Positions 27,535 to 56,567 are shown, numbered from the stretch's first letter. The stretch: DNA of 64,000 nucleotides from an uncultured delta proteobacterium (GCA_963801935.1 CAWDHA010000035.1:8852-72851), one strand, 5' to 3'. Numbers and translations are program-made. The notes: generated from the letters alone by a model not told the origin.

Positions 27535-27621
27535 AGGTTCCCGGCCGTGAGCTTGGTCGAACGGTCGAACCGCGACCGGAGAGACTTTCTCCTCGGCCGT
27601 AATCTCGTGAATAATGCAGGC
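27535..27621. mobile_element. MITE-1-related terminal fragment in the flgC-fliE intergenic gap
   Basis: The sequence ...ggccgtgagcttggtcgaacggtcgaaccgcgaccggagagactttctcctcggccgtaatctcgtgaataatgcaggc|TA aligns with 56421-56509 and with the right end of the 44781-44981 copy. It ends in CTAG, which overlaps the flgC TAG stop. Confidence 0.6.
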
Positions 27622-28076
27622 TAGGCATTGCGGCCGATTTCCAACAGTCTTCGGACCAGATCCTTTGGTCGCGTTGTATGCGGTCAAATTCGCTTCATAA
27701 CTGCGTACCGCCGACATCAGGTCGACCATTTCTTCGATGACGTTGATGTCCGGAAGCGAAACATAACCGGCGCTGTCGGCATCCGGATGATTGGCATCAA
27801 AAATTTGCCGCGGCGCCCGGCTCGACTTGGCGAATGCCCGCCACTTCGACGGACAATAAACCTTCGCGAACGATCGAAAAAATCCTCGGCCAGCAAATCA
27901 CCGAACTCAGCGCCCGTTGGCACCGCTCTAAACAGGATATCGCGGCGCCGGTAAGGTCCGCCTTCCGGCGTCCGGGTGGTTTCGGTGTTGGCCAGATTGC
28001 CGCTGATGACGCTCATGCGCTCGCGTTGCGCCGCCATTCCGGCGCCGCTGATAGCAAACATTTTAAAAAGATTCAT
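27621..28076 (-). CDS. flgC: flagellar basal-body rod protein FlgC (at least 3 apparent frameshifts)
   Basis: N-terminus MNLFKMFAISGAGMAAQRERMSVISGNLANTETTRTPEGGPY. The reading then passes through SVEVAGIRQVEPGA and APRQIFDANHPDADSAGYVSLPDINVIEEMVDLMSAVRSYEANLTAYNATK in other frames. The inferred end KDLVRRLLEIGRNA* stops at 27621-27623. Confidence 0.75.
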
Positions 28077-32352: not shown

Positions 32353-32404
32353 AGGCGCTCCTTTACTGATTTCGATTTCCAAGAAATTGATCGTTTGCCG
32401 TTTT

Positions 32405-32420
32405 AGCACGCTCCATGCCA
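32405..32420 (-). promoter_or_regulatory. candidate sigma54 promoter upstream of the receiver-less activator gene
   Basis: The minus strand reads TGGCAT-GGAGC-GTGCT (GG-N10-GC), about 55-70 nt upstream of ATG 32352. Confidence 0.4.
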
Positions 32421-38734: not shown

Positions 38735-39790
38735 CTACTTGGCATAAAAGATTTCGCGGAACGTTCCGCTCATCAATTTCTTGAATTCCTCAGCCGAAGG
38801 GTTGTCCATTAGAACAATGTTCGGCTGAACTTTTTCCGCATCCTTGATCGGCGGCAGCACACCCGGCGCAAAGACGAACTCGCCGTCCTCGGCGATATGT
38901 TTCTGTCCTTCCACCGAACAGGCATAGTCGACGTAAAGCTTGGCGGCGTTGGGATTGGCCGCCTTGATCCCGACCGACATGTAATTGGGATCGGCCAGGT
39001 ATTTGTCCATGAGCACGTAATGCACCGGACCCTTGTACTGCTTGACGTACTTGATGTAGGTGATGCCGACGGCGGCTTCGCCCTTGATGACCGAGGTCGT
39101 AACCGGCGCCAGCGAATCCACCAGCACGGGCTTTTGCTTCGCCAGGCCGCGAACCAAATCGAGCCAGTTGTCTTTTTTAAACTTGCTCAGGTTCCACAGG
39201 AACTGCGCGGTGGTCGTGTGCCGCGTCGGATCGGGCATCGAGATCTTGTTTGTCCATTTAGGCTGCAACAGATCGTCGTAAGACTTCGGCAGCTCGGCCG
39301 GCTTGACCATATCGGTGTTGTAAATAATGCTGATCGGCAATACCCGCCAGGGCGTAATCAAGCCGTCTTTTTCGATGACTTGCGCGGGGAATTTTTCCGC
39401 GGCCGGCGGCAGGAACTTGGTGAACAAACCCTCCGACTTCATGATCAGTTGCACGCCGCGGTTGCCCTCGACGACGTCGAAGCCGGGCTTACCGGCGCGC
39501 CACTCGGTCAGCGCGCGTTCAGAAACTTTGGTTGAGTCGCCGCGCCAGTACTCGACTTTGATGCCGTACTTGGACTCGAATCCTTTATTGAAATCCTCCA
39601 TCGCCTGGGGTACGACCGAGCCATAGACGACCACTCTGCCTTCCTTCTTTGCTTGATCGACATTGACGGTTTGGGCCGTGCCGTTAACTGGAGCGAAGAT
39701 CGCCGCGCACAAGACGGCCAGGCCGAGGCGCAGCACCGCATGTAATCCTTTCACAAACACCTCCTGAAGATAAATTGCCAGATGACGCAT
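38735..39790 (-). CDS. ABC transporter periplasmic substrate-binding protein (Fe3+/family-1 type), paralog 1
   Basis: Signal-peptide-like N-terminus. EGRVVVYGSVVPQAMEDFNKGFESKYGIKVEYWRGDS is typical of FbpA/AfuA-like binding proteins. Confidence 0.75.
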   Translation of the reverse strand: MRHLAIYLQEVFVKGLHAVLRLGLAVLCAAIFAPVNGTAQTVNVDQAKKEGRVVVYGSVVPQAMEDFNKGFESKYGIKVEYWRGDSTKVSERALTEWRAGKPGFDVVEGNRGVQLIMKSEGLFTKFLPPAAEKFPAQVIEKDGLITPWRVLPISIIYNTDMVKPAELPKSYDDLLQPKWTNKISMPDPTRHTTTAQFLWNLSKFKKDNWLDLVRGLAKQKPVLVDSLAPVTTSVIKGEAAVGITYIKYVKQYKGPVHYVLMDKYLADPNYMSVGIKAANPNAAKLYVDYACSVEGQKHIAEDGEFVFAPGVLPPIKDAEKVQPNIVLMDNPSAEEFKKLMSGTFREIFYAK

Positions 39791-39852
39791 CGCTTTCTAC
39801 CGGCTAAGTCAGAATTAACTTGATTTCTCCGAGCATTTCAAATTGCGCTATC

Positions 39853-40060
39853 TAGCCGCATTATTCATGGCATCACGCCCGAGGAGCAAGCCTCTCCGAG
39901 CGCGGCCAATAGGGTACTACCTTGAGGAGACCTCTTGAAATTTCGAAATTCGAATTTCGCAATTCGAAATGTGATAGTCTGTGTCCGCTCTCTACGAGGC
40001 TCACTCCTCGGACTTACACTCTGCCGCGCATTTCCCACGCGCCATGAATAATGCGGGATA
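39853..40060. mobile_element. MITE-1, copy A (208 bp, TA-flanked, 16-bp perfect TIR)
   Basis: TA|GCCGCATTATTCATGGC ... GCCATGAATAATGCGGGA|TA. It has an AT-rich palindromic core (gaaatttcgaaattcgaatttcgcaattcgaaat). It is a reverse-orientation homolog of 44781-44981. Confidence 0.75.
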
Positions 40061-40222
40061 GCAGCCCGTGGTGAAAGTCTGACTGCATTCGACTTGTGAT
40101 CGATCCCCGTTGGCTGCGTTGCTCCTCCCCTCAAATATTCCGCGATATTCTCGGTCGTCGCGCCTTGCCATCAGGGCGCCTCGCCCATCTCGGTGCGACG
40201 CCACACTTTCACCACGGGCCGC
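40061..40222. mobile_element. MITE-2, copy A (162 bp, TA-flanked), abutting MITE-1
   Basis: TA|GCAGCCCGTGGTGAAAGT ... ACTTTCACCACGGGCCGC|TA. It is near-identical in direct orientation to 49550-49710. Its last base (C 40222) plus the right flanking TA (40223-40224) read as the TAG stop of the adjacent binding-protein gene on the minus strand. Confidence 0.75.
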
Positions 40223-40839
40223 TAAGGGGCGAACAACTGGCGAAAAGCGCTTTGCAGCTTCTGTAGCTGCTCGGCGCTGGGATCTTCCAGCAAACGGATA
40301 TCGGCGATGATTTTGTCAGCGTCCTTGATCGGCGGGAAAACGCCGGGCGATAACACAAACTCGTTAAACTCGCTAACCTTCTTTTGTCCTTCTGGCGAGC
40401 AGAGATAATCGATCAGAAATTTTGCCGCGTTCGGGTTGGCGGCTTTGGCGCTCAGGCCGGCGTCGCTGGGATCGGCAAAGACCTGATTGATAGATGCAAA
40501 ACTGATGGGGCCTTTGGTTTGGCCAACGTACTGAATGTAACTGATGCCGAGCGCTGCCTCGCCGCGGACAATGGCCGTCGGCACTGAAGAGTAAGCCTCC
40601 ACGAACAAGGGTCGCTGCTTGGCCAGGGCGCGCACAAAATCGAGCCATTTGTCGCCTTTGATTTGCTGCAAGTTCCATAGATAGCTAGCCGTGCTCGCGT
40701 GGCGCGATGGATCGGGCATGCTGATCTTGCCTGTCCACTTGGGATCGAGCAGATCGTCGAGCGACTTGGGCACCTCGGCGGGCTTCACCAGCTCGGTGTT
40801 GTAGAGAAGACCCACCGGGGTAATGCGCCAGGCGGTCAA
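40222..40839 (-). CDS. ABC substrate-binding protein paralog 2, C-terminal fragment (gene split by a frameshift near 40840-40860; full span 40222..41225)
   Basis: It aligns by eye with the paralog 1 C-terminus (LLYNTELVKPAEVPKSLDDLLDPKWTGKISMPDPSRH versus IIYNTDMVKPAELPKSYDDLLQPKWTNKISMPDPTRH). Confidence 0.75.
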   Translation of the reverse strand: MTAWRITPVGLLYNTELVKPAEVPKSLDDLLDPKWTGKISMPDPSRHASTASYLWNLQQIKGDKWLDFVRALAKQRPLFVEAYSSVPTAIVRGEAALGISYIQYVGQTKGPISFASINQVFADPSDAGLSAKAANPNAAKFLIDYLCSPEGQKKVSEFNEFVLSPGVFPPIKDADKIIADIRLLEDPSAEQLQKLQSAFRQLFAP

Positions 40840-41225
40840 ATGGCCGTCCTTATCCTTGAACTTGGCGGGAAAACGGCCGCGCTGGCGGGCGTAAACTTGG
40901 CATAGACGCCGTCAGCCTTTGCCAGAGTGAGCGGTCCGCGGGCGCCGATGACCATATCGAAGCCCGGTTTACCGGCGCGCCATTCGGTGAGCACGCGGTC
41001 GATGAGCTTGGTCGCATCACCGCGCCAGTATTCGATGTCGATGCCATATTTCGCCTCGAAGCCTTTCTCAATCTGGCTCATCACCTGCGGGATAATGGTG
41101 CCGTAGACAAAAACTTTGCCTTCCTTCTTGGCCGCTTCCAAGCTCACCGCTTGCGCCCAGGCCTCAACCGAAGCGCTCGCCAATAGCATGAAAACGAGCT
41201 TAACCAGCGCTTGAGAAGGACCCAT
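40836..41225 (-). CDS. ABC substrate-binding protein paralog 2, N-terminal fragment
   Basis: Signal peptide plus EGKVFVYGTIIPQVMSQIEKGFEAKYGIDIEYWRGDA, parallel to paralog 1. Confidence 0.75.
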   Translation of the reverse strand: MGPSQALVKLVFMLLASASVEAWAQAVSLEAAKKEGKVFVYGTIIPQVMSQIEKGFEAKYGIDIEYWRGDATKLIDRVLTEWRAGKPGFDMVIGARGPLTLAKADGVYAKFTPASAAVFPPSSRIRTAI

Positions 41226-41293
41226 CGAGTTACTCCTTCGTAGACCTAGTTCAGTTATTACAATTGCTTGCTAGCAATAAACGAAGTCGTTTC

Positions 41294-42274
41294 TTACACA
41301 AGGCCGCGGCCCATTTCGATGACGCGGCGGCGTGCCTCCTGGGTTCCGGTGGGCAACAGAATGGGCAAATTGAGGCCGCCGTCAATGAACGACGCCAACT
41401 GCTCGCGGCACTCGGCCGGCGTGCCCGCAACGGAGTGAGCGAGCACGACCTCATCGCTGATTAACTTCTTCGCCGCCTCCCAGTCGCGCTTCTTAACCGC
41501 CGCAGCGAGCCCCTCTTGATCCACCGTGCCGCCGCCGAGTCTGATATTCTCGGCGTGGTGCAGGTTGCGAAATATGTAGGCGAGAAACAATTTGTTCGCT
41601 TCCATCGCCGCGCGCTTATCCGGCGCAACCGAGGCGGTGACGAAGCCGGCGATATCGCAGTGCGCCATCCCCTTGCCGGCTTTTGCCGCGCCCTGTTTGA
41701 TCTCGCCGACGCACTCGGCGATATAACCCGGCGAGCAGCCACCGGACAGCAGCACGCCATCGCCAATGGCGCCCCCGAGGCGCAACATCTGCGGCCGCAC
41801 CGCCGTCAGATACATAGGAACCGTTGCTTGAGGAGTGAAACCCATCTTGGCGCCGTTGATATGAAACATCTCACCCTCGAAATTGACCGTCTGGCCGCTT
41901 AGATAAGCGCGCAAGATGGCGACGTACTCGCGCATGGTCTTCAGCGGGTGCGGTGACTCGATCCCGGCTTCCTTTAAAGCTGCGGCGTTGCCTGTCCCCG
42001 GACTGGCAATCACCCGGCCAGGGGCGTACTCCTCCATGGTCGCAATCGCCATCGCGGTGATTATCGGGTTGCGCGAATAAGGGCTCATGGGTGCGGCCGC
42101 GACCTTGATCTTTTTGGTTGAGCCGAGGAGCGCCATCGAGGTGACCAGCGAATCGCGAAAGCACAGATGGTCCGACATCCAGAGTGAATCCAGCCCGGCG
42201 CCGTCCGCCAATTGAGCCAACTCGATCATTTCCTGGATCGAATAAAAGCCATCGAAGCAAAGTCCGACACGCAT
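41294..42274 (-). CDS. LLM-class (luciferase-like) flavin/F420-dependent oxidoreductase
   Basis: MRVGLCFDG...LAQLADGAGLDSLWMSDHL is the typical luciferase-like monooxygenase N-terminus. 326 aa. Confidence 0.7.
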   Translation of the reverse strand: MRVGLCFDGFYSIQEMIELAQLADGAGLDSLWMSDHLCFRDSLVTSMALLGSTKKIKVAAAPMSPYSRNPIITAMAIATMEEYAPGRVIASPGTGNAAALKEAGIESPHPLKTMREYVAILRAYLSGQTVNFEGEMFHINGAKMGFTPQATVPMYLTAVRPQMLRLGGAIGDGVLLSGGCSPGYIAECVGEIKQGAAKAGKGMAHCDIAGFVTASVAPDKRAAMEANKLFLAYIFRNLHHAENIRLGGGTVDQEGLAAAVKKRDWEAAKKLISDEVVLAHSVAGTPAECREQLASFIDGGLNLPILLPTGTQEARRRVIEMGRGLV

Positions 42275-42350
42275 GCTAGTCCTCGCTATCAGTCATTTCG
42301 CACTGCCGACCGGCTGCATTCAAACAACCTGAGCTGGCTCTTTGCGCCGC

Positions 42351-43502
42351 CTACGAAGAGTCTGCGGCAAGCCCAAAGCCGTTGTCCAAAATGTCTTGTA
42401 ATTGTTTGGGTTCTATCTCGCTCAGTCCCATTTTATCTAAGGTTAGGCCGGCGCTCAGAAAGTCAATGCCGAGCGCTGTCGAGGCCAGGGTGATCAACGC
42501 ATCGATGACCGGAGTCTTGACCCCGAACAGGCGACCGATCTCGGCCATCGGCACTAAGCCAAAGCCGACATCTTCTTTGATATAGCGGTGATCCAAGGAC
42601 GGCGGCGACTTAATGGAACGGTTCGGCTCACTCTCATGAATCGCCCGGTAAACCGACCCGCTGGCGCGGGCGTCGTCGGAGGTAAGGCCCGAACGGTGGA
42701 AAATATCGACGAAGCGCAGCGGCTTGAGGTTGAGACACCGGACGATCTCCAACCTTTCCCGATCCAGCGCTTCGATCCATGCGGCGATCGCAGGGGTGAT
42801 ACCTTCACGATAATAGAGAAAGTCGCCGGCGGTTTTTTCAATCCAGCCGGCGTTGCCGATGATGCCCGCCGGATGCATGATCGCGTTGATATTCGAGAAA
42901 CCCGTGGCCATAACGTTTGCCGCGGCGACGATGTTGGGAAAGACCGCGCTGACAGCACCGACCAGCTCCGCTGTATGCTTCGCCGGAAACGCAGCGGAAC
43001 TGAGATCGGTTGTGCGCCGGTAAATTTCCACCCGGGCAGGTTCAGGCATGCGGCAAATATAGGTCAACGTGACCGTCTCGCAAAGCTTGAAATCGACTGC
43101 GCAACCGAAGGAGCGCAACAGATGCGCGAAGTGCAGCGAGCCGCCGGTGTGTCCCGGATTTAAAAGAATGATCTGGCCATCGCGCAAGTGAGGCGCGACG
43201 CTTTTGGCGAGGTACTCGTGGGCAAGCGCGGGCGCGGCGACCACAATCAAGTCGGCGCCGTTGACGACCGGTATGATCAACGGGCTGGCGAAGTAAATCC
43301 CGGCGAAACGCTCAGCGCCCCCTTCGACGAGCGTGATCCCGCCGCGCTTCATGATCGGCAGCAAGGTTCTGTCCGAGCGCGAAAATAGCCGCACCTCAAA
43401 GCCACGCAAGGTTAAATCGGCCGCCGCCGCCGAGCCGCCGTTGCCGGCGCCGAGAACTGCGATCTTTTTTATTGCCACAGCCAATCGCTCAGCACGCGTC
43501 AA
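42351..43502 (-). CDS. NAD(P)-dependent octopine/nopaline (opine) dehydrogenase family protein
   Basis: Rossmann N-terminus KIAVLGAGNGGSAAAADLTLRGFEVRLF. The length and C-terminal helical domain are typical of the family. Confidence 0.65.
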   Translation of the reverse strand: MTRAERLAVAIKKIAVLGAGNGGSAAAADLTLRGFEVRLFSRSDRTLLPIMKRGGITLVEGGAERFAGIYFASPLIIPVVNGADLIVVAAPALAHEYLAKSVAPHLRDGQIILLNPGHTGGSLHFAHLLRSFGCAVDFKLCETVTLTYICRMPEPARVEIYRRTTDLSSAAFPAKHTAELVGAVSAVFPNIVAAANVMATGFSNINAIMHPAGIIGNAGWIEKTAGDFLYYREGITPAIAAWIEALDRERLEIVRCLNLKPLRFVDIFHRSGLTSDDARASGSVYRAIHESEPNRSIKSPPSLDHRYIKEDVGFGLVPMAEIGRLFGVKTPVIDALITLASTALGIDFLSAGLTLDKMGLSEIEPKQLQDILDNGFGLAADSS

Positions 43503-43512
43503 CTAGATCAAG

Positions 43513-43597
43513 TAGTTCAAGACGTTCAAATCGTTCAAGCCGTTGTCCGCTCCGAAACTCGTTTTGAACGATTTGAACGGTTTGAACGTTTTGAACT
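43513..43597. repeat. TTGAAC-repeat hairpin element, copy 2
   Basis: CGTTCAAATCGTTCAA (43523-43538) pairs perfectly with TTGAACGATTTGAACG (43564-43579). Both arms are tandem 9-mers of NNGTTCAAN. Confidence 0.65.
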
Positions 43598-43607
43598 CTT
43601 TCTTTTT

Positions 43608-44763
43608 CTAATCGATCCGGTAGTGCTTTAGCTTGTCTTCGTCGAGCTCAACCCCTAGACCCGGCTTGGCTGAGACCATTACGTCGCCGTCGCGATACTC
43701 GAACGGCTCCGTGATGATGTCATCGGAGTAATAGATGCCGGCAATGCCGCCGGGCGCTTTTTCTTTCGGAGTCGAAACCGGCACGACAGAACCGTAGGTC
43801 ACCACAGCGGTTGACGCGGCGAGGTGAATGTTGGCCGCATTACCGACTCCGGTCTCAACTGAACCGTTGACATTGCAGGCTAATCCCGCCGCTTGCGCAA
43901 CGGCTGCAACTTGTTTGGCTTTGAACAGGCCGCCGGGCTTGGTCGTATAGAGTGAAATCATGTCCGCGGCGTTTTTTTGCGCGATCTCTAACACGTCGCG
44001 CGCGCTCCAAGCGGACTCATCGGCCATCACCGGCGTATTCACCCGGCGCGTAACCTCGGCCATGCGATCGATGCCTTCCACCGGTTGTTCCATATAGAGG
44101 AGATTATATTCGGCCATGGCATTAGTGACTTGCACGGCAAGCTTTACTGAGTGATACCCTTGGTTGGCATCGACGCAAATCTTTATATCGGCGCCGACGG
44201 CGGCACGAACGCGCTCGACAAGCTCGAGATCGCGCCGCGGCTCGACGCCGCCTTTAAGCTTGATCGTCTTCACGCCTTCGGCGGTCGCTTGCCGCGCTTC
44301 TTCGACGGCTTTGTCGATCTCCATCAAACCGAGACTATGGGCGATGGCGATGCGCTCGCGAAACAGACCGCCCAGCAACTGATACACCGGCAGGTTCAAT
44401 GCCTTGCCGGCGACGTCATATAACGCCGCATCGACGGCCGCCTTACAGTAAGGATAACCTTTCACGGCTTTGTCCATGAGCGCGTGCGCGGCTTCAAAGC
44501 GCATCGGGTCCTGGTCCCTCAACGCCTGGCGCCAAGATATCGTTGATCATGTGCACCGTGGTCTGGGGCGTCTCGCCGAAGTATCTGCCGTAATCGCCGC
44601 CCCAGTCTTTGAGCACCGGCGCTTCACCCCACCCGACCAGCCCCTGATCCGTATGCAGTTTGAGGATGACATAGACGCCGATCGGCGTCGTCAAACTGGC
44701 CCACTGATGCATGCGCCGCGTCGGCAAGCGGATCGGAATAGTTTCGATGTTGGTAATCTTCAT
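43608..44763 (-). CDS. enolase-superfamily enzyme (mandelate racemase / muconate lactonizing enzyme family; apparent frameshift near 44500-44522)
   Basis: N-terminal fragment: MKITNIETIPIRLPTRR...GLVGWGEA. Main ORF: metal-ligand blocks KLKGG, VDANQGY, MEQPV and MADES. Confidence 0.8.
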
Positions 44764-44780
44764 TTTGAGCCAGGGAACTA

Positions 44781-44981
44781 TCCCGCATTATTCATGGCAG
44801 CTCGGAAAACTCCAGCACAGTGTAAGGCCGAGGAGTAAGTCTCATAGAGAGCGGGCACAGAACTTTCACATTTCGAATTGCGAAATTCGAATTTCGAAAT
44901 TTCAAAGGTCTCCTCAAGGTACAGGCCCATTGGCCGACCGGAGAGACTTTCTCTCGGCGGTAGTCTCATGATAATGCGGGC
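44781..44981. mobile_element. MITE-1, copy B (201 bp, TA-flanked)
   Basis: TA|TCCCGCATTATTCATGGC ... TCATGATAATGCGGGC|TA. It is roughly 85% identical by eye to the reverse complement of copy A. It begins 18 nt upstream of the enolase-family start codon. Confidence 0.75.
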
Positions 44982-45070
44982 TATTGCCTCATCTTATTTT
45001 TTCGCGAGTGAGCGAGCGCGCATCTCTTAACCCTCTCCCGTCTCGGGAGAGGAAAGGGTGAGGGCCAATC

Positions 45071-46183
45071 TCAGCCAACCCTCAGCAGCTGATCGGTCGG
45101 TGTCACGTCAGAAAGGAGTTCGCAACCTGATTGCGATACCGCGAACATGTCCTTATTCTGCATGCCGAAGCGTCCGGGAATATAAACCAGCGGCTCGAAG
45201 GCGCCGACCATGCCGGCTTCAACGATCGCGTTGCCGTAACGGCCCATGTACGGCTCTTCATGGAGATTGAGGCCAATGCCATGGGCGACGAAGCTGATCG
45301 GCTCCAAGCCGAGCTCCTTGAACTTATCGAGAAACTTGCGATAGATCTCGGCACAGCTCGCGCCCGGTTTAATCAGATCCATCACGAGATGCTTGCACTG
45401 GATCAAGTTTGACCAGATTTTTTCCTGTTCCGCGGTCGGCTCACCCACGACCGCGGTGCGGCAGACGCCGGCCAGATAACCGTCTTTCTGGCCGAATATC
45501 TCCATGCGGATAATGTCGCCGTATTCGAGCTTGCGCTCGGTTGGCCCGACATTAGGAAACTGGCTGCGCTCGCCAGAGGCGATGATCATGAGCTTGTAGC
45601 TTTGGGCGCCGCCGCCGAATAACGAACTCAGCAAGGCGCCGGCAAGCTCCATCTCGCTCATGCCTACGCGCGCGGACCGGAGCGCATCGCCGAGCGCTTT
45701 GTCGGTAAGCTTGCTGAGGGCGCGCAACAAAGCTATTTCAGCCCCGGTCTTGATCAGCCGCGCCTTATTAAAAATCGCATCGGCAGCGATCCAATGAACG
45801 GCGGGCAGTTCTTTTTCGAGCGTCGCAAAATCCCGGGCCGGCAGGAAATCCAATTCGATGGCGATTTTGCCGCGATCTAACTTGAGATCGCTGAGCGCCT
45901 CGGCCAGCTTGTCCATCGGATCATCGGTGAACTCGCGGTAAATCCGGATGTCGGCGATGTCCGCGTGCGCCTTCACCGTGGTTGCTTCCATGTCGATGGC
46001 AACCATGGCAACTCGGCCCTCGGCTGTGACGATGCAAGCCGCATGGCGCCAGCGCATCAGCGCTTGCGACGGCACGACCAAGCCGGAGACGTAAGTTACG
46101 TTCTCAGGGGAAATCGCGATAATCGCATCGAGACTTTCGCCGGCAAGGCGCTCTCGCAAGCCTCTGATGATTTTTTGATCCAT
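45071..46183 (-). CDS. M24-family metallopeptidase (Xaa-Pro aminopeptidase / creatinase-like)
   Basis: Creatinase-like N-domain plus a pita-bread domain (YGDIIRMEIFGQKDGYLAGVCRT, HGIGLNLHEEP, GMVGAFEP). The track ORF starts at 46273. MDQKIIRGL at 46183 is the more likely start. Confidence 0.75.
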   Translation of the reverse strand: MDQKIIRGLRERLAGESLDAIIAISPENVTYVSGLVVPSQALMRWRHAACIVTAEGRVAMVAIDMEATTVKAHADIADIRIYREFTDDPMDKLAEALSDLKLDRGKIAIELDFLPARDFATLEKELPAVHWIAADAIFNKARLIKTGAEIALLRALSKLTDKALGDALRSARVGMSEMELAGALLSSLFGGGAQSYKLMIIASGERSQFPNVGPTERKLEYGDIIRMEIFGQKDGYLAGVCRTAVVGEPTAEQEKIWSNLIQCKHLVMDLIKPGASCAEIYRKFLDKFKELGLEPISFVAHGIGLNLHEEPYMGRYGNAIVEAGMVGAFEPLVYIPGRFGMQNKDMFAVSQSGCELLSDVTPTDQLLRVG

Positions 46184-46315
46184 TAACTGCGGGTCGTTTC
46201 TATCAACAATTACGCTCAACGCGCGGCAAAGCGCAACCGGCGGCACTCGATAAAAAACGCGCCGACACTTCACCCGGTCGGGCTATCTCTGCGCCGCGTA
46301 TCACAGGTGGTCGGG

Positions 46316-46855
46316 TCACGGCGATGCTTCTTGCTTTCGCATCACGAACTCGATCGGCGCGCCGCCCTTGTCATCCTGCATACGAAAGCTAATCTCGGCG
46401 CCGGAAAGTTTCCCCCGGTAACGGTTCAGCCGATTGCTGCCGCTGTCGCCTGATACCTCCTGATAACGAACGCCGAAGGACAAGCCATCGCCGTCGACCT
46501 TGCCGTCTTCGATGCCGCGTTTATGTCCAAGAAACGATGCGGTGCCGAAGAGCCGGGGCGGTTCAGGTTCGAAGAAAAATTGCTCGTGGTACTTTGCCCC
46601 CCAGCTATACGTGACCTCCCCTTGCCAAACGCCGGACAGCGATCGAGCCAGTTTGCTGATCTCTGGGGTTACGGCCTCGGACCGGGGCTCTGCCAATTTT
46701 TCCTGGCGCAACTGCCACCACACGGCGAAACTCATGAGCAGAATGATTAGCGGCACTTTCCACCATAGCCGTTTCAACAAGCGCTCACGGCGCTCGCGAA
46801 ACGCCGCCTGCTGCGCTGTCTCCGGTTTCTTCCGGAGAGCCGGAAGCTCTGCCAA
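46316..46855 (-). CDS. hypothetical membrane-anchored protein
   Basis: 179-aa ORF with one TM segment (WWKVPLIILLMSFAVWW). I recognise no motif. Confidence 0.45.
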   Translation of the reverse strand: MAELPALRKKPETAQQAAFRERRERLLKRLWWKVPLIILLMSFAVWWQLRQEKLAEPRSEAVTPEISKLARSLSGVWQGEVTYSWGAKYHEQFFFEPEPPRLFGTASFLGHKRGIEDGKVDGDGLSFGVRYQEVSGDSGSNRLNRYRGKLSGAEISFRMQDDKGGAPIEFVMRKQEASP

Positions 46856-46909
46856 CGCCTTGATTCCTTTCCTTTAACAGTTTCGGGTTCGGCTTGCCGA
46901 TGAATGCAG

Positions 46910-47878
46910 TCAGCGCCCCAGGCGATCCATGGTGGCGACGTAGTCGCGCACGCCGTCTTCGACCGAGTAGGCCGGCTCGTAGCCGATGTGGCGCTCGGCC
47001 GCGGCGATGTCGAAGATACAGTAACTCTGTTTGCTCCGGCCGAGCTTGCTCGGACCGGGCCCGAGCTCGATCCGATGATTGGGAAACAGTTTCGCCGCCG
47101 CATGCAGAAAATCACGCGGCGTCACCGCCTTGCCTGTGCCGATATTGAAGGTCCAGACGCGCGGCGCCGGCGCTTTGAGCGCCAGATAGATAGACCGGCC
47201 GACGTCGCCGACGTAAACCGCGTCATTTTTTTGATCTCCCCCCTCGGCAATCACCCACTTCACCCCCGCGCGCGCTTTCTCGATCAACTGGCCGTAAAAA
47301 GAAAGCGGGCCGTGGCGCGCTTCTTTGCCGGGACCGTAAATCGACACGAAGCGCAGCGCGATGAACTCGACGTTGTAGGTGTTGCGATAATAGCGCCCCA
47401 GTTCCTCCGAACAGACTTTGATAGAGCCGTATAAGTCCGCGGGAACTTTGCGGTAGTCTTCGCGCACCGGCCGGTAATCCGGCGCTCCCTCGGCGCCATT
47501 GATCTCGCCGTATACCGCTTTGGAGCTGGTGAAGACCACGCGCTTGATATTTTTCGCGCGCGCGACTTCCAAAATATTGATGGTTCCTTCGGCGCCGACG
47601 CGGATGCCAAGGCGTGGATTGGTCTCCGCCGGCTCGGGCATCAGCGCCGCCAGATGGGCGATACAGTCAATCTGATAATCATCGACCACCTGAGTGAGAA
47701 ACTTGGCATCGCAAACATCGCCGATGACGCAATCGACCTGATCTTTAATGTCCTGCATCAAAATGAAATCCTCGCGGTTGTCGAGCAAGACCGGCCGCAA
47801 GCCGTCGCGCACCATCAAACGTGCGGTTACGGCGCCGTTCACGCCCATGCCGCCGGTAATCAGGACTTTCATGAGCAC
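46910..47878 (-). CDS. NAD-dependent epimerase/dehydratase (extended SDR)
   Basis: MKVLITGGMGVNG (GxxGxxG). The YxxxK context YGSIKVCSE. 322 aa. Confidence 0.8.
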   Translation of the reverse strand: MLMKVLITGGMGVNGAVTARLMVRDGLRPVLLDNREDFILMQDIKDQVDCVIGDVCDAKFLTQVVDDYQIDCIAHLAALMPEPAETNPRLGIRVGAEGTINILEVARAKNIKRVVFTSSKAVYGEINGAEGAPDYRPVREDYRKVPADLYGSIKVCSEELGRYYRNTYNVEFIALRFVSIYGPGKEARHGPLSFYGQLIEKARAGVKWVIAEGGDQKNDAVYVGDVGRSIYLALKAPAPRVWTFNIGTGKAVTPRDFLHAAAKLFPNHRIELGPGPSKLGRSKQSYCIFDIAAAERHIGYEPAYSVEDGVRDYVATMDRLGR

Positions 47879-48138
47879 CCCTCCATCGTTTATGGCCCAA
47901 ACCTATTACAACAGCCGTTGGCGCATCAACCTTTATGTTTGTGTTCACGAGTGTTGACTGGAATTGATCATACGAGTTAAGCCATTTAAGAAGGCTGATA
48001 GGGAAATACTTAGTCTCTGGCAACAAAGTAGCACCTTCCATTATTCCCCCCGTCTTGAGGAAGGATGGAGCTGGGGAAGGAAGAAGACCGGCTCCTTGTC
48101 AAAGACAGCGCGATTAAAAACTTTGAAGGAGAAGAATC

Positions 48139-49500
48139 ATGGGTTCAACAAACAAGTGGCAACCACCGGAATTTGTCACGCGCGAGCAATGCATTAAAGA
48201 TACCGAAGAGGTGCTGGGCATCTCCGATATTCCGATCAAGAGCACGGAGGATATTTTTCGCATCAAGGTACTCGGCCTGGATTGGGACCTCGGCATGGTG
48301 GTGCATGAGCCTGTGGATGCGGCGCGCATACCGAACGGCGCCGACGGCAAGAAAGCCGGTTTCTTTTTGCTGCATGGCGGCTCCAGCGACTTCAAAGGCA
48401 TCGAGCGCCACGCTAAATTGCTCGCCAGCAAATTCGGCTTTCGGGTGGTCGCCGGAACATTTCCGGGCCGGTTCTACTTTCCCGACCCCAGCCGCGACTG
48501 GCCCGGCGATACCATCCATGCCGACGGCACCGTGCGCACGCCGGTCTGGAAGCAAGGAGAGCTGATCACACGGGATCAGTACGACGTGGTCAAAGACACC
48601 TCCATGCGCGACCGTTACGGCACGCGCACTCTGGCGCGCGCAAAGCCCGATACCAATTTCTGCTATCGCATGGCGGCTTGGCCCGCGGCTTTCGAAGAAG
48701 GCATGATCGAGGCCAACCGGCGTCATTTTCCGGAGCAGGAATTCTCCGTCTACGGCCAGGGCCACTCCACCGGCGGGCCGTTTGTCTGCATGCTGTCGCA
48801 GCGCATTCCCAATATGGCCGGTGTCTGCGCCACAGAGCATTCGCCGTTCGGCTACCTTAGCATGGGGCGCGACGAGTGGGGCGGCGATATGGGAAAGATC
48901 ACAGGCTTCGAAAAAATCGAAACCATAGGGAAGGCACGCACCGATCCCTTCAACGAGTTATACATTCGCACGTGGCGCGATCTGGCGCGCTATCAAGGAC
49001 CGGAAGCGCTCGGCCAGGAGGGACCCACCGCGCTCATGCGGCTACCGGCGATCATGGAAGACATCCTTGAAGCATGGGAACGCGCAAAGAATCGGCCGCA
49101 GTTCAAAGCCGAGTATATCGTCACCCATGCCATTAGCGCTTCGCTCGCCGAAGGCGCGCGGGTCAGCGCCGCGCGCTTGAAGATGAACAAAGATGAGACC
49201 GCAGCGTTGATCGAGCGCTTCATCGGCTACACGCGCGAGCTTTCAGGCGCCGGCGTGAAGCCCGTGCCGCCGTTTCTTTTTGAGATCTCGAAAGACAGCC
49301 GCGATCATAGCCCGGAAGTTTACGACCAGGTCATCCTGCCTGGTTTTCGCGCTATGAAGCCCGCGCCCAAAGTCGCCATCACTCGCTTTGGCGCCGGCGT
49401 CCATAGTTTTTGGAAAGCGGAAAAAGACCTACCGGCGGGGATCGTGCCGTCCGTCGTGAAAAGTTGGCGGGAAGCAGTAACGGGCGGATACTTTTCTTGA
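48139..49500 (+). CDS. uncharacterised alpha/beta-hydrolase-like protein
   Basis: 453-aa ORF with GGAG before the ATG. It has an HGG-type oxyanion motif (FLLHGGSSD) and a GxSxG nucleophile elbow (GQGHSTGGP). I recognise no closer family. Confidence 0.5.
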   Translation: MGSTNKWQPPEFVTREQCIKDTEEVLGISDIPIKSTEDIFRIKVLGLDWDLGMVVHEPVDAARIPNGADGKKAGFFLLHGGSSDFKGIERHAKLLASKFGFRVVAGTFPGRFYFPDPSRDWPGDTIHADGTVRTPVWKQGELITRDQYDVVKDTSMRDRYGTRTLARAKPDTNFCYRMAAWPAAFEEGMIEANRRHFPEQEFSVYGQGHSTGGPFVCMLSQRIPNMAGVCATEHSPFGYLSMGRDEWGGDMGKITGFEKIETIGKARTDPFNELYIRTWRDLARYQGPEALGQEGPTALMRLPAIMEDILEAWERAKNRPQFKAEYIVTHAISASLAEGARVSAARLKMNKDETAALIERFIGYTRELSGAGVKPVPPFLFEISKDSRDHSPEVYDQVILPGFRAMKPAPKVAITRFGAGVHSFWKAEKDLPAGIVPSVVKSWREAVTGGYFS

Positions 49501-49549
49501 GGGGCGACAGCGCGCCGCCCCTCAAGATTCAACGAGGATCGATCGTTTA

Positions 49550-49710
49550 GCAGCCCGTGGTGAAAGTCTGACTGCATTCGACGGGCAACGCATCCCCGTT
49601 GGCCGCGTTGCTCCTCCCTCAAATATTCCCCGATATTCTCGGTCGTCGCGCCTTGCCATCAGGGCGCCTCGCCCGTCTCGGTGCGACGCCACACTTTCAC
49701 GACGGGCTGC
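49550..49710. mobile_element. MITE-2, copy B (161 bp, TA-flanked)
   Basis: TA|GCAGCCCGTGGTGAAAGT ... ACTTTCACGACGGGCTGC|TA. Its last base (C 49710) plus the right flanking TA (49711-49712) read as the TAG stop of the membrane-protein gene on the minus strand. Confidence 0.75.
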
Positions 49711-50411
49711 TAACGCAAAATCAGTAAAAAAAGCACATAAAACACCGCCGTCAGGATAAAGCCGCTCCAGAGGGCACCGGCGACGGAATCCAGCGGCTTC
49801 TTCGTCGGACCTTGCGCGCCGGTCAGAGCGTTGTACTCAACGGCGGCAAGAATGACGAAACACAAAAGCCAAAAAATACCGTGGCCGCGCGATTGCGGAT
49901 TCACCAAAGCCGGCGAATGCCGCGCCGCGCCCATAAAAAATAACATCGGAATCGAGAACACGACATTGGTTCGAGATGTTAATGCCGCGCGCCGGCCCGC
50001 CGCTGCGGCGTCCGGCAGCGCCTGGCCGCCGCCGGCTACTTGATTGGTAGAGGCCATGACAATTTGTTGTTTGGGCCAAATCACGAGCCAGACGTTCAAG
50101 AACATTATCGTCCCGATCAAAGCGCCGAGAGATATAACAACACCGTAATGGCCGCTAAAAAAAACGCTCGTTCCGACCGGGGTCCATTCCATTAAATAAA
50201 TGAGCAGCCCGGCAAGAAACGTAACCATGGCGGCCCAACGAAACCACCAGAGCGCGCGCGGCACCAGTTTTTGAATCGCGCCGACCCTGACCGGAGCCTC
50301 GGTTTCCGCGAAGAACGGCGTCTGCACGAAATTGAAATAGTAAAGAATGCCGATCCACGTGATACCTGCCAAAAAATGAATCCAGCGCAGAAAAAATTTT
50401 GCTTCTTCCAT
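49710..50411 (-). CDS. polytopic membrane protein (possibly PuuD-like N-terminal membrane domain family)
   Basis: ATG 50411 is preceded by GGAGGGG. The protein starts MEEAKFFLRWIHFLAGITWIGILYYFNFVQ and has 5-6 TM segments. The track ORF's extra 87 N-terminal codons overlap the divergent MFS gene and look non-coding. Confidence 0.45.
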   Translation of the reverse strand: MEEAKFFLRWIHFLAGITWIGILYYFNFVQTPFFAETEAPVRVGAIQKLVPRALWWFRWAAMVTFLAGLLIYLMEWTPVGTSVFFSGHYGVVISLGALIGTIMFLNVWLVIWPKQQIVMASTNQVAGGGQALPDAAAAGRRAALTSRTNVVFSIPMLFFMGAARHSPALVNPQSRGHGIFWLLCFVILAAVEYNALTGAQGPTKKPLDSVAGALWSGFILTAVFYVLFLLILR

Positions 50412-50608
50412 GATATTCCCCTCCATCCGCCGAGCCTTGCCACGGGCTGACCCCATCGATTGGTACTCATATATTAGTGGATGCGGAATTTTGTCAAGTG
50501 AAAACTTGCTGCGGAACTGCATAGCCGCCGCGACGGCGCTTTGACGTTGACGGCCGCGGCGCCAACCGCTACATTGCGATTCATAGCGCAATCCACCTTC
50601 ACCTCTCC

Positions 50609-51865
50609 GTGGCAGATCACAAAGACAATCCATCCAGCAGCGAACCGGCGATTCGCATTCGCCCCTGGTCATCGCTGCTGCTGCGCGACTATCGCCTGAT
50701 CTTTATCGTTATTCTCTGTGGCGGCACGGCAAACCACATGCGCAATGTGGCAAGCCTTTATCAGGTCTACGAGCTATCGGGGTCCTCGATGCAGCTCGGG
50801 CTCGCCGGATTTTTTCAGGCGCTGCCGGCGATCGTACTGGGATTATTCGGCGGCGTGTTGGCCGATAGCGTGAATCGCAAAAAACTGATTGCCATCACCC
50901 ACAGCTTGAACGTGTTGCCGGGATTGGCCTTGTGGTTTTTAACCGAAACCGGACGGATCGAGGTCTGGCACGTGAACACATTGAGCGTCATCGCCGGCGC
51001 GCTGCAGACTCTCGGCGGACCGGCGCGCCAGGCGATCATACCGGGTCTAATTCCACAGACACATCTGCTCAATGCGGTGACTTTGACAACCTTGATGATG
51101 CAGGGAACCCAGCTCACCGCGCCGGTGATCGCCGGCTTTTTGATCGACGGATTCGGCGTCAAAGCGGCGTATTTAACCGATGCGTTTTTTCTGATTCCGT
51201 CGGTAATCGCCGTTCTGCTCGTCCATGCCTCGGGCCGGCCCCAGGGGCAGCGCCGCCGGATCAGTTGGCGCAGCCTGGTCGACGGTTTTGAATTTCTCTG
51301 GCACACCCGTATCATTCTCTCGCTCTTTTTGCTTGACTTTTTCGCGGTGCTCTTCGGCTTCTATCGCCCGATCCTGCCGATTTTCGCCGAAGAGATTTTT
51401 CAGGTTGGGCCGCGCGGCCTGGGAGCGCTCTATGCCGCGCCCGCCATCGGCGCGCTAATTGGCTCCGGCATGCTCCTCGCCGTCGGCGACATCGAACGCA
51501 AAGGCGCCGTCGCGGTCATCGTCACCTTGCTTTTCGCTCTGAGTCTGGGATTTCTCGGCTTGGCGCAAACTTTCTGGGTTGGCTTGATCGCCGTCGGCCT
51601 GCTCGGCGTCAGCGATGCCATCAGCGTCGCCATCCGGCGCACGGTGGTGCAGATTCTCGCGCCGGACAATATGCGCGGGCGCGCCACCAGTTTTCTGAGT
51701 GTCTTCGCCCAGACCACCAACGGCCTGGGCGCTGTGATTGCCGGCGCCGGCGCCGCGCTCCTCGGCGCGCCCAACGCCGCGCTGCTCGGGTCGGTGCTGT
51801 GCGCGCTCACGGTTTTGGCAACCTGCTGGGCAATCCCCCAGTTGTGGCGATACCGGCCGGATTAG
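50609..51865 (+). CDS. MFS transporter (EntS/MFS_3-like exporter)
   Basis: 418 aa and about 12 TM segments. It has the GGVLADSVNRKKL loop typical of this MFS subgroup. Confidence 0.75.
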   Translation: MADHKDNPSSSEPAIRIRPWSSLLLRDYRLIFIVILCGGTANHMRNVASLYQVYELSGSSMQLGLAGFFQALPAIVLGLFGGVLADSVNRKKLIAITHSLNVLPGLALWFLTETGRIEVWHVNTLSVIAGALQTLGGPARQAIIPGLIPQTHLLNAVTLTTLMMQGTQLTAPVIAGFLIDGFGVKAAYLTDAFFLIPSVIAVLLVHASGRPQGQRRRISWRSLVDGFEFLWHTRIILSLFLLDFFAVLFGFYRPILPIFAEEIFQVGPRGLGALYAAPAIGALIGSGMLLAVGDIERKGAVAVIVTLLFALSLGFLGLAQTFWVGLIAVGLLGVSDAISVAIRRTVVQILAPDNMRGRATSFLSVFAQTTNGLGAVIAGAGAALLGAPNAALLGSVLCALTVLATCWAIPQLWRYRPD

Positions 51866-51870
51866 TGTTA

Positions 51871-51937
51871 GTTCAAAGTTCAAGGTTTAAGGTTCAAAGC
51901 CCCTCACCCACCTTGAACTTTGAACGTGAACTTGAAC
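51871..51937. repeat. TTGAAC-repeat hairpin element, copy 3 (between convergent genes)
   Basis: GTTCAAAGTTCAAGGT (51871-51886) pairs perfectly with ACCTTGAACTTTGAAC (51910-51925). Confidence 0.65.
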
Positions 51938-51952
51938 CGCGTTCCTGACGCG

Positions 51953-54267: not shown

Positions 54268-54361
54268 TAATCATTCCCCCAAGTGCATCGGCAGTCATAA
54301 ATTTATAAATTGTGAGTTTTTCAGTTAGCGGTTTTTCGAACATCGGGCAACAAACTGAAAC

Positions 54362-54397
54362 AGTCTCCCCGGACGTAATCCCGTGGATAATTCGCAC
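54362..54397. mobile_element. solo MITE-1-type terminus
   Basis: agtctccccggacgtaatcccgtggataattcgcac|TAG resembles the right terminus at 56476-56509 and ends in CTAG. Confidence 0.35.
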
Positions 54398-54449
54398 TAG
54401 CGCCTGAGCGGTGGACAATAGCTCAACTAATTAGGCATACTCCAACTCT

Positions 54450-55604
54450 ATGGCGGGAAAGCGCTGGATCGGTGCCCTCTCACTGCTATGCCTCACGGCT
54501 TGGACGCCAAGTGAAATTCTCCGCGCCCAGACAACGCCGCGCGCCATTGTCATCGCTTGGGATGGGGCGCTGCCCTCATTCGTGCACGAAATGCTCCGCG
54601 AGGGGAAACTTCCCAACCTCGCCAGACTGATTGCCGGCGGCGCCTTTGCTGACGATGTCGAGTCGGTTTATCCCTCCAAAACAGCGCCCGGTTTCGCAGC
54701 GCTTTGGACCGGCGCGCCGCCGCGAATAACCGGCATCAGCGGCAATCGCCAACCGCGAGCGCCGGCGCATCAATATACGATTCTGGAAAATCATGTCTCG
54801 TTCCTGAGCGCGCCGCTGCGCGCCGAACCGATCTGGACGGTGGCACTGCGCGCCGGGCGCAAAGCCGTGCTCGCGCATGTGCCGCTCGGCCGCGAGCTCT
54901 CTGACGGCGCAACCAAACTGCTCGGCTACGATAGCTATAGCGGGCGCGACGGTGTCATCGACAGCCGCACTGTGAAGCCGCAACCCGCAACTTCATGGCG
55001 GAACCTCCCGGCCAGCGCCAAAGCGCCCATGGAAATTCAATTTGTCCTGGGCATTTCGCCGTTTTTCGGCCTCTTCATCGATGATCCAGCAAAACCGGCA
55101 AATGGTTATGACACCTTGCTGGTGACCAGCGCGCGCGACGGCGCGAGCATCACGGCAAAATTGACAACCAACACGATTGCCCCCGAACAAAGCCTGTGGA
55201 GCGAGCCGCTCGACGTCAAAACCGCCGGCAACGAGGACGCGCGAGTCTATTTGCGGCTCTTCGAGCTCAGAGCCGACAGCGGCGAGTTTCTGCTGTACCA
55301 TACGCGGCCCGCGCGCACCATGATTTTTCCCGCCGAGCTTGCAGCCGATCATGCGGCAGCCGCCGGCGCATTCATAGGTAACGGAGCGAACTTTATTGTA
55401 TCAAGACGGCGCCCTGGGACTTACTTTAGCGAGCGGCGGCCAGGGTCTTGCGGAAGCGCGCTACATGGAGACTGCGGCAATGGCGCAACGCCAGCTCACG
55501 CGCACGGCCTTGTGGGCGATCGGCGCCGTGCCCTGGGATCTGCTGCTGCTTTACACGCCTTTTCCGGACGAGGGCGAACACCTGTGGCGCGGTCATGCGG
55601 ATGA
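54450..55604 (+). CDS. alkaline-phosphatase-superfamily nucleotide pyrophosphatase/phosphodiesterase, N-terminal fragment (gene split near 55385-55400; full span 54450..56337)
   Basis: Signal peptide plus VIAWDGALPSF...VYPSKTAPGFAALWTG (Thr nucleophile context). After about 55390 the ORF text turns Arg/Ala-rich and non-homologous. Confidence 0.7.
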   Translation: MAGKRWIGALSLLCLTAWTPSEILRAQTTPRAIVIAWDGALPSFVHEMLREGKLPNLARLIAGGAFADDVESVYPSKTAPGFAALWTGAPPRITGISGNRQPRAPAHQYTILENHVSFLSAPLRAEPIWTVALRAGRKAVLAHVPLGRELSDGATKLLGYDSYSGRDGVIDSRTVKPQPATSWRNLPASAKAPMEIQFVLGISPFFGLFIDDPAKPANGYDTLLVTSARDGASITAKLTTNTIAPEQSLWSEPLDVKTAGNEDARVYLRLFELRADSGEFLLYHTRPARTMIFPAELAADHAAAAGAFIGNGANFIVSRRRPGTYFSERRPGSCGSALHGDCGNGATPAHAHGLVGDRRRALGSAAALHAFSGRGRTPVARSCG

Positions 55605-56337
55605 CTCTCAGAACCCCGGCAGTAAGGCGCTCCGCCGGCTGTTGGCGGAGATCTATAGCACATCGGACACTCTGCTCGGCGAACTGCTGGCAAAACGCCC
55701 GGACAATACTCTGGTTGCCGTGGTATCGGACCACGGCATGGAAGCGGTTAATAAATCGCTGGCGATCAACCGGGTGTTGGAGCGCGCCGGATTGTTGGTG
55801 TTGAACAATAAAGGACAACCTGATTTGACCCGGACCAAGGCCTTCTATCCATCGGTCAACAATGGCTACCTGCTGCTCAACACAACCGGCCGAAAAAACG
55901 GCATCGTTACTCAGGAAGAGCGGGCGGGCGTCGTTAAACGGCTCCGCGCCGCGCTTGAAGATGTCCGTGATAACGGCAAGACCGTGGTGACGGCGCTCTA
56001 CGACGCCCAGAGCGACGGCAGCAAGATGGGCATCGGCGGCGATGCCGGCGGAGATATCTACCTGGACCTGCTGCCGGGTTATGACTTCGAGCCGGGCACC
56101 GGCCCGGGAGAAATCATCACAGCAAAGGCGCCCCACGGCATGCACGGCTTTACCCCGGCGCGCCCCTCGATGCGCACGATTATGGTGCTCAATGGCCCCG
56201 GCGTTTTGCAGGGAAAGCGACTGGAAGGCGTCCGGCTCATCGACTTCGCGCCGACCCTGGCGAAACTCTTGAACTTGCCGGCGCCAAAAGACTCTAGCGG
56301 TCGGGTGCTGCGAGAAGCGCTCCGCGAACCGCATTGA
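55396..56337 (+). CDS. alkaline-phosphatase-superfamily phosphodiesterase, C-terminal fragment
   Basis: LLLLYTPFPDEGEHLWRGH, VAVVSDHGM and HGMHGF are metal-ligand blocks of the family. Confidence 0.7.
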   Translation: MYQDGALGLTLASGGQGLAEARYMETAAMAQRQLTRTALWAIGAVPWDLLLLYTPFPDEGEHLWRGHADDSQNPGSKALRRLLAEIYSTSDTLLGELLAKRPDNTLVAVVSDHGMEAVNKSLAINRVLERAGLLVLNNKGQPDLTRTKAFYPSVNNGYLLLNTTGRKNGIVTQEERAGVVKRLRAALEDVRDNGKTVVTALYDAQSDGSKMGIGGDAGGDIYLDLLPGYDFEPGTGPGEIITAKAPHGMHGFTPARPSMRTIMVLNGPGVLQGKRLEGVRLIDFAPTLAKLLNLPAPKDSSGRVLREALREPH

Positions 56338-56354
56338 CCGCGGCTGCCGTTGCC

Positions 56355-56509
56355 GGTCTCCTCAAGTTATAGACCCATTGGCCGCCCTTCGATGGACTCA
56401 GGGTGGTGAGCCTGCCCTTCGAGAACCTCAGGGCCGTGAGCTTTGTCGAACGGTCGAACCACGGCCGAGAAGCTTGCTCCTTGGACGTAATCTCGTGAAT
56501 AATCCGATC
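56355..56509. mobile_element. MITE-1-related half element with an internal duplicated unit
   Basis: It shares ggtctcctcaag..cccattggccg and the ...cgtaatctcgtgaataat... terminus with MITE-1. It contains two tandem units, cccttcga..ctcaggg..gtgagc. It ends in CTAG. Confidence 0.55.
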
Positions 56510-56567
56510 TAGAGACCAATGCATTTGGAATCTCGAAATTTTCTTTGACAGTGGAGGGTATTGCGCT

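Follow-up and report, generated by a model that had tools for sequence, protein, structure and literature searches.

Two families of miniature inverted-repeat elements in an uncultured delta proteobacterium carry the termini of IS1380-family and IS5/IS1182-like insertion sequences

Two repeat families in the window

We analyzed 64,000 nucleotides of DNA from an uncultured delta proteobacterium (GCA_963801935.1 CAWDHA010000035.1:8852-72851; this whole stretch is called the window), in which two families of miniature transposable elements with inverted repeats (MITEs), MITE-1 and MITE-2, are found. Two of the copies abut minus-strand open reading frames (ORFs), namely a solute-binding-protein ORF at 40222..40839 and an ORF at 49710..50672. 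An initial annotation, made from the sequence alone, had located both families and described their terminal inverted repeats (TIRs). Reading the sequence together with a repeat search bore out the positions and the TIRs of both. The complete copies are:

39855..40058, minus strand: MITE-1 copy a, about 204 bp, with the core CCGCATT..AATGCGGG at 39856-40057; flanked by TA at 39853-54 and at 40059-60, the right TA being common to MITE-2 copy a
40061..40222, plus strand: MITE-2 copy a, 162 bp, with TIRs GCAGCCCGTGGTGAAAGT and ACTTTCACCACGGGCCGC; flanked by TA at 40059-60 and 40223-24
44782..44980, plus strand: MITE-1 copy b, with a core of 199 bp; flanked by CTAT at 44778-81 and CTAT at 44981-84
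49550..49710, plus strand: MITE-2 copy b, 161 bp; flanked by TA at 49548-49 and 49711-12

The two MITE-1 copies, annotated at 39853-40060 and 44781-44981, lie in opposite orientations, and the repeat search found their 44-nt AT-rich cores to be 98% complementary. The MITE-1 TIR CCGCATTATTCATGGC is exact at three ends in the window, while the fourth end (44965-44980) differs from it by a 1-nt gap and mismatches. A short-read contig from metagenome run X1 has an extra C directly 3' of position 39855. The window therefore has a homopolymer error at 39855, and the true left end of the copy at 39853 is G-CCCGCATT, matching the other ends. The MITE-2 copies (40061-40222 and 49550-49710) lie in direct orientation and have a mean column identity of 91% in an alignment that takes in about 16 nt of flank per side. 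Both start TA-GCAG and stop ..GC-TA, where the hyphen marks the element boundary. Their TIR GCAGCCCGTGGTGAAAGT occurs four times in the window at up to one mismatch, compared to 0.05 occurrences expected by chance.

In size (161-204 bp), in TIR length (16-18 nt) and in the lack of any similarity to transposases, the window elements are typical MITEs. As the initial annotation had claimed, the window holds no transposase gene: tblastn with IS1380, IS5/IS1182-like and IS630 transposases gave a best E-value of 0.3.

The elements are also mobile. A 634-nt contig from run X1, which samples the source metagenome, joins position 44777 to 44981, skipping 203 nt with four ambiguous letters (CTAT). It reads GGGAA-CTAT-TGCC, with a single CTAT, and represents the unoccupied (empty) allele for MITE-1 copy b, which makes this copy a presence/absence polymorphism. 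No empty sites of the other window copies were seen in the X1 and X2 contigs, which we attribute to the patchy coverage of the source by X1; of the words sampled from 39000-46000, this run contains two thirds. In the soil-type runs X1 and X2, contig depth is higher over MITE-2 than over the flanks by a factor of 10-100, and the loose ends there are many and varied. The MITE-2 family must therefore be highly repeated in both communities. Many other public genomes and metagenome contigs likewise contain TIRs of the two types. The description of the repeats as non-autonomous, TIR-bounded and TA-flanked mobile elements thus holds.

Full-length elements with the same termini

We scanned one genome per species for the MITE-2 TIR with the pattern GCRGCCCGTSGTGAAAGT, which contained the terminal G of the element. 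This yielded at least 116 loci in Acidobacteriota (many of them Vicinamibacterales), Planctomycetota, Gemmatimonadota, Myxococcota, Rokubacteria-type and other metagenome-assembled genomes (MAGs). Pairing of the ends gave at least 70 complete elements, which include 38 in the range 159-163 bp, five at about 272-286 bp and 15 long ones (1444-1537 bp). Among the matches listed, the distinct long elements all encode homologous transposases of the DUF772+DDE_Tnp_1 type (14/14; 54-92% identical); the ORF is intact in twelve (about 440-470 aa) and shorter in two (254 and 300 aa). The 18-nt terminus is exactly conserved across several phyla. The window copies themselves closely resemble elements at three Acidobacteriota MAG loci (L084, L092 and L079), to which copy a is 87% identical over its full length and copy b 89-91%. 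On this similarity the source may be Acidobacteriota-like; a look-up of the exact protein of one window ORF in public assemblies gave no match.

One locus, L035, holds two identical 1537-bp IS5/IS1182-like elements in tandem (1429-4709), 207 bp apart and each in a CTAG. Directly after the tandem, on the other strand and outside the TIR-bounded elements, follows an IS630-family transposase gene (4738-5847). The transposase of the tandem elements contains the domains DUF772 (PF05598, 2.7e-17) and DDE_Tnp_1 (PF01609, 4.1e-07), both above their cutoffs. Its best NCBIfam models are IS1182 (NF033551, 8e-46) at 156.9 bits and IS5_4 at 89 bits, and it reaches the curated cutoff of neither (270 and 140). 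The MITE-2 partner is therefore a separate clade, which we file as IS5/IS1182-like. The presence of DUF772 and DDE_Tnp_1 and a preference for YTAR targets (Y, pyrimidine; R, purine) agree with the IS5 superfamily. A homologue on a Sphingobium plasmid, annotated as an IS5 family transposase, is 50% identical and belongs to an element with related TIRs and CTA..TAG flanks.

For MITE-1 we scanned metagenome contigs with the 17-mer CCCGCATTATTCATGGC and found at least 120 loci. Roughly half of these were chance matches inside conserved coding sequences and were discarded; one repeated group of them lies in what may be dxs. The remaining matches are element ends and nearly always follow TAG or TAA. 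At least 44 TIR-bounded pairs were recovered, which include MITEs of 187-254 bp and full-length elements of 1477-1715 bp. There are at least five of the latter, and the four distinct transposases scanned all belong to the IS1380 family, with 313-397 bits against the model NF033539 (cutoff 180) and E-values of 1e-113 to 5e-152 against PF13701. They are 53% identical to the transposase of ISAzs3. The MITE-1 core begins with CCCGC; IS1380 ends start with CC. The MITE-1 TIR was not found in the 116 MITE-2-family genome loci. Nothing relevant to the TIR strings, or to IS1380 or IS1182 together with CTAG, turned up in searches of the literature.

We conclude that both repeats are very probably MITEs moved in trans by DDE transposases that recognize their TIRs, one of the IS1380 family and the other IS5/IS1182-like. 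Dispersed copies are accompanied by autonomous elements with the same ends, these partners coming from other genomes and metagenomes. The MITE-1 terminus (G)CCCGCATTATTCATGGC is that of a clade of IS1380-family insertion sequences (ISs), and the MITE-2 terminus GCAGCCCGTGGTGAAAGT that of an IS5/IS1182-like IS clade of about 1.45-1.54 kb. In the mechanism that we propose, the transposase would insert the element at YTAR, mostly CTAG, and the insertion would duplicate the central TA, probably together with the two outer bases. A partner IS would exist, or have existed formerly, in the source organism.

Some observations count against this conclusion. The tblastn searches with three kinds of transposase found no partner IS in the 64-kb window, the MITEs and the sampled full-length elements have only their termini of about 17-20 nt in common, and the MITE-1 interior had no match in the 120 metagenome loci. 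With similarity confined to the termini, the claim of mobilization in trans rests on TIR identity and identical flanks.

The assignment to IS630/Tc1-mariner in the initial annotation was not supported. The full-length elements with exact TIRs and CTA..TAG flanks encode other transposases, IS5/IS1182-like in 14/14 cases and IS1380 in 4/4.

Further observations on the MITE-2 family concern its sizes. The length of 159-163 bp is kept, for example, in five Planctomycetota loci (L051, L063, L076, L077 and L081) despite interiors unrelated to those of the Acidobacteriota copies, and a second size class of about 272 bp occurs with the same TIR (L072, L082, L088 and L100). In viral contigs, 37 matches of the 15-mer CCGCATTATTCATGG were set aside as chance or unrelated, given that no inverted mate was present in the 14 loci checked. 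A scan of viral contigs with ATTATTCACGAGATTACG gave no match.

Secondary structure of the elements

The fold of MITE-1 copy a is a rod of -97.8 kcal/mol (z -7.4), and that of MITE-2 copy a is a rod of -84.3 kcal/mol (z -7.0). Across 28 copies of the approximately 160-bp MITE-2 family from different MAGs, the rod is kept by compensatory changes, with double changes in 20 of the 50 pairs. Paired cells make up 93.4% compared to 82.7% in shuffles, and double-change cells number 141 compared to 49. The covariation score of 0.284 exceeds that of the shuffled alignments (0.106; reached in 0/500), and slid controls score about 0.05. Among 17 IS1380-type MITEs, 19 of 63 pairs have double changes. Two G.U pairs in the 28-copy alignment (columns 29-137 and 30-136) are kept in 25-27 of the 28 copies.

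Such folds would also be expected if the repeats were mainly structures used by the host, such as hairpins of 3' untranslated regions, RNA stabilizers, terminators or protein-binding sites, and were kept for their fold, with mobility serving only to spread them. The covariation-backed rod in both families, the constant size of 159-163 bp in subfamilies from different phyla and the z of about -7 of both window elements speak for this explanation, which we nonetheless consider unlikely. With respect to flanking genes, the elements favor neither orientation (10 sense and 9 antisense read-in configurations). Rfam gave no match at gathering thresholds in the whole window or at E<=1 in 39750-40300, and 39600-40400 contains no consensus terminator or promoter. 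No RNA run holding the locus was found. Part of the source population lacks one copy, with no consequence that could be seen, and the complementarity of the arms can be explained by the needs of transposition or by fold-back-templated repair. Given the missing orientation bias, Rfam match and consensus terminator, the fold is more likely a requirement or a by-product of element biology than a host RNA function, and any effect of the elements on transcripts would be a matter of prediction. No tRNA or tmRNA was found in the window either.

Target site and duplication length

All four complete copies have TA on both sides, as described initially. The flanking 4-mers are CTAG and ATAG for MITE-1 at 39853, ATAG and CTAA for MITE-2 at 40061, CTAT and CTAT for MITE-1 at 44781, and TTAG and CTAA for MITE-2 at 49550. 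In both families the flanks take the form xTAG-core-CTAx. The preference for CTAG-like sites was confirmed in the larger samples, here counted among the matches listed. MITE-2-family ends are preceded by TA in 96/125 cases and by CTA in 74/125. The inferred targets are YTAR in 41/46 MITE-2-family and 20/24 MITE-1-family elements, and CTAG in 31/46 and 10/24, respectively, although CTAG accounts for only about 7.5% of the tolerated TA sites in the MITE-2-family loci. YTAR is the target of the IS5 group of the IS5 family.

Several sites point to a duplication of 4 bp. Four copies of ISAzs3 have perfect 4-bp duplications (CTAG/CTAG, TTAG/TTAG, TTAG/TTAG and CTAA/CTAA), and the two flanking 4-mers agree in nine elements at sites other than CTAG (four with CTAA, three with TTAG, one each with CTAC and TCAG). 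In the window, the CTAT/CTAT pair around the copy at 44782, compared to the single CTAT of the empty allele, fits a 4-bp duplication. In published trap-plasmid data (PMC3281130, Table 2), IS1182 and IS1380 members have repeats of 4-5 bp, including 5 bp in IS1247 and 4 bp in ISPse1, and the IS427 group has repeats of 2 bp.

Other flanks favor a shorter duplication and so weigh against a 4-bp one. Three of the four window copies fit a duplication of TA only (2 bp). Old copies almost always have G/C beside the core, and their outer base is variable and frequently unequal on the two sides. In the MITE-1 family, the 2-bp model has 5 violations and the 4-bp model 14, and 13/24 sampled elements have unequal 4-mers. 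The MITE-2-family flank statistics are moreover biased by the terminal G in the scan pattern. Unbiased MITE-2 ends show the 4-bp signature, a kept G and other patterns in a ratio of 5:4:1.

We initially considered a strictly TA duplication and withdrew it in view of the equal pairs outside CTAG, the correction for the G in the scan pattern and the ISAzs3 copies. Of the TA duplication proposed in the initial annotation, the TA flanks of all complete copies stand; the TA itself probably represents the invariant center of a duplicated 4-bp YTAR, as is usual in these families. We infer that 4 bp are duplicated and that the innermost of these bases subsequently drift or are converted to the family consensus, or stem in part from the donor. 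The staggered cut would be of corresponding length.

The flanks also bear on whether these could be IS630/Tc1-mariner-type MITEs inserted at CTAG with duplication of TA only. TA lies beside every complete window copy, three of the four fit only the 2-bp length, and in the large samples the inner G (left) and C (right) are near-constant next to variable outer bases, the pattern expected if TA is duplicated and the G...C belongs to the element. An IS630 transposase gene even adjoins the tandem IS copies in L035. That gene, however, is outside the TIR-bounded elements, and every full-length element examined with TIRs of the GCAGCCCGTGG.. or CCCGCATTATTC.. type encodes a transposase other than IS630. 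The clean 4-bp duplications of ISAzs3 and the nine non-CTAG sites with equal 4-mers also contradict an IS630 origin, which we regard as very unlikely. Segmental duplication or recombination within the source genome, to which the presence of only two full copies per family in the window and the abutting of two of them at 40059-40061 might point, is extremely improbable, as similarity ends exactly at the TIR ends between mutually unrelated flanks, the empty site of the 44782 copy is precise, and near-identical elements occupy unrelated contexts in dozens of other genomes.

Further MITE-1-type ends

The window contains three additional MITE-1-type end modules, missed by the initial annotation, each of which finishes directly before CTAG:

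27543..27624, plus strand: MITE-1-type end module between flgC and fliE; terminates ..AATAATGCAGG-CTAG
54355..54400, plus strand: diverged MITE-1-type end module; terminates ..GGATAATTCGCA-CTAG
56355..56512, plus strand: MITE-1 variant, consisting of the MITE-1 right half, an 82-nt insert and ..AATAATCCGAT-CTAG

A decayed element of about 130 bp may have its right end in the module at 54355; its left boundary would lie directly 3' of the TAG stop at 54265-67. For the copy at 56355, the sequence CCGCATTGACCGCGGC at 56328-56343 is a possible decayed left TIR, with 11/16 matches to the TIR; it overlaps the final codons of an ORF at 55396..56337 together with its TGA stop. If the decayed left ends at 56328 and at 54264-54290 are real, two further copies touch gene ends. 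The 82-nt segment nested in the 56355 copy (56386-56467) contains GGCCGTGAGCTTKGTCGAACGGTCGAACC. In the repeat search it was partly common to the 27543 copy (27543-27578), and a related copy on an X2 contig lacks it. This suggests either that the segment is a small insertion nested in the copy or that the variant is modular.

Insertion at stop codons

Reading of the ORFs confirmed that the terminal C of an element and the adjacent TA can form a TAG stop codon on the minus strand. C40222 with TA (40222-24) is the stop of the solute-binding-protein ORF, and C49710 with TA (49710-12) is that of ORF 49710..50672. The empty site of the 49550 copy was probably TTAA, so that the insertion would have turned an original TAA stop into TAG. 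A third such stop, claimed at 27621-23, stands in part. The CTA at this position is a FlgC stop on the minus strand and ends a typical FlgC C-terminus (..KDLVRRLLEIGRNA), but the flgC frame is interrupted upstream and reads FlgC-like only over the last 20 or so codons.

The TA of a stop codon is thus occupied at three ends in the window, and elsewhere in 16/69 elements. Among the matches listed, the latter are a predicted 8/44 MITE-2-family and 8/25 MITE-1-family elements, as judged from reconstructed empty sites and a home-made codon-usage gene model. Compared to all tolerated TA sites, for which the null is 7.5% in the MITE-2 family and 3.2% in the MITE-1 family, stop codons are enriched. 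Compared to tolerated CTAG sites, the MITE-2 family has no excess (8/44; null 17%). The corresponding null for the MITE-1 family is 9.5%, a figure that rests on a poor gene model. The model is weak on metagenome loci, where it called only 60% of the sequence coding, and this counts against the stop-codon test.

The initial annotation had read insertion at stop codons as a way to colonize a gene-dense genome. Insertion at stops is indeed frequent, but it is better read as a by-product of the target, since either strand of YTAR reads TAA or TAG and insertion re-creates the site. A YTAR stop would be restored either by the duplication or by the G...C at the tips of the element, leaving the gene intact and making such insertions neutral. 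In a GC-rich, gene-dense genome, these sites would form a large share of the harmless targets, and surviving copies would gather at gene ends.

A bolder interpretation combines two proposals, and taken together we regard them as doubtful. The first is that some undescribed feature of IS1380/IS5-like chemistry could account for the mixture of 2-bp and 4-bp signatures. One donor flanking base could be carried at each end, so that the innermost duplicated position would be heteroduplex and could be resolved in favor of either base. The second is that MITE lineages may have been selected for harmlessness, and perhaps for usefulness, at gene ends, where they could serve as portable 3'-end hairpins. 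This part draws on the stop-rebuilding G...C tips together with the YTAR target, on the constancy of about 160 bp across phyla and on the compensated rod fold.

Comparison with known systems

The IS1380 family, with ISAzs3 of Azospirillum sp. B510 and IS1247, is the closest known relative on the MITE-1 side. The transposases of elements with MITE-1 TIRs pass the IS1380 model, the ends of ISAzs3 (CCGGGAAAATTCATGAGG) resemble those of the MITE-1 type (CCCGCATTATTCATGGCG), and its copies occupy CTAG, TTAG and CTAA sites with 4-bp duplications. In contrast to these ISs, the window elements are non-coding, measure about 200 bp and share only the terminal 17 or so nt, while many old MITE copies have a fixed G/C beside the element and unequal outer bases. 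The MITE-2 partner is similar to IS5/IS1182 elements such as ISPse1 in its domains, its YTAR target and its length of 1.44-1.54 kb. It differs from them in scoring below the curated cutoffs and in an 18-nt terminus that is exact across phyla. Bacterial MITEs derived from IS630/Tc1-mariner are likewise small TIR elements, flanked by TA and often in CTAG, but the partner transposases here are of other families and there is evidence for a 4-bp duplication.

Correia elements, ERIC/IRU and RUP are hairpin-forming intergenic repeats of bacteria (PMC2229807). The window elements are like them in their size of 100-200 bp, in their intergenic location, often at gene ends, and in forming a stem-loop over the whole element. 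Unlike in that comparison group, autonomous partners with the same termini were found here in other genomes and metagenome contigs, and the fold is backed by explicit covariation counts.

These results correct the family assignment from IS630 to IS1380 and IS5/IS1182-like, and supply a simple mechanical explanation of the coincidence with stop codons. To annotators of MAGs from soil (Acidobacteriota and neighboring groups), they offer two widespread repeat families defined by their termini, (C)TA-GCAGCCCGTGGTGAAAGT at typically about 160 bp and (C)TA-GCCCGCATTATTCATGG at typically 188-254 bp. Such repeats interrupt assemblies made from short reads and can displace the gene ends that are called. 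To IS specialists, the exact 18-nt terminus across phyla and the covariation-backed rods are modestly new, and the general picture of bacterial MITEs is unchanged.

Assembly quality and other repeats

A normal FlgC would require at least two frame changes in flgC (27621-28076), and at 45014 the X1 short-read contig has a 2-nt deletion relative to the window. Together with the other X1 difference, this makes the window look like a long-read assembly with homopolymer indels, and the apparent 1-nt TIR gaps may be assembly errors.

A third class of repeat consists of intergenic inverted arrays with the unit GTTCAA plus 2-3 nt, found at 43505-43597, 23545-23640 and 51870-51945. In these, for example, three to four tandem units stand opposite three to four complementary TTGAAC units across a loop of about 25 nt. 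Inverted arrays at 85-250 and 13227-13300 have the same architecture with another unit, of 8-9 nt and based on GCGCA (e.g. AGCGCATGGCGCAAAGCGCATGGCGCATAG facing CTTTGCGCTTTGCACTTTGCGCTCTGCGC). Finally, two minus-strand ORFs at 28638-29555 and 31591-32784, 2794 nt apart, have stretches of 71-77% nucleotide identity and are paralogous. They resemble genes in four of the scanned loci (L002, L085, L263 and L268).

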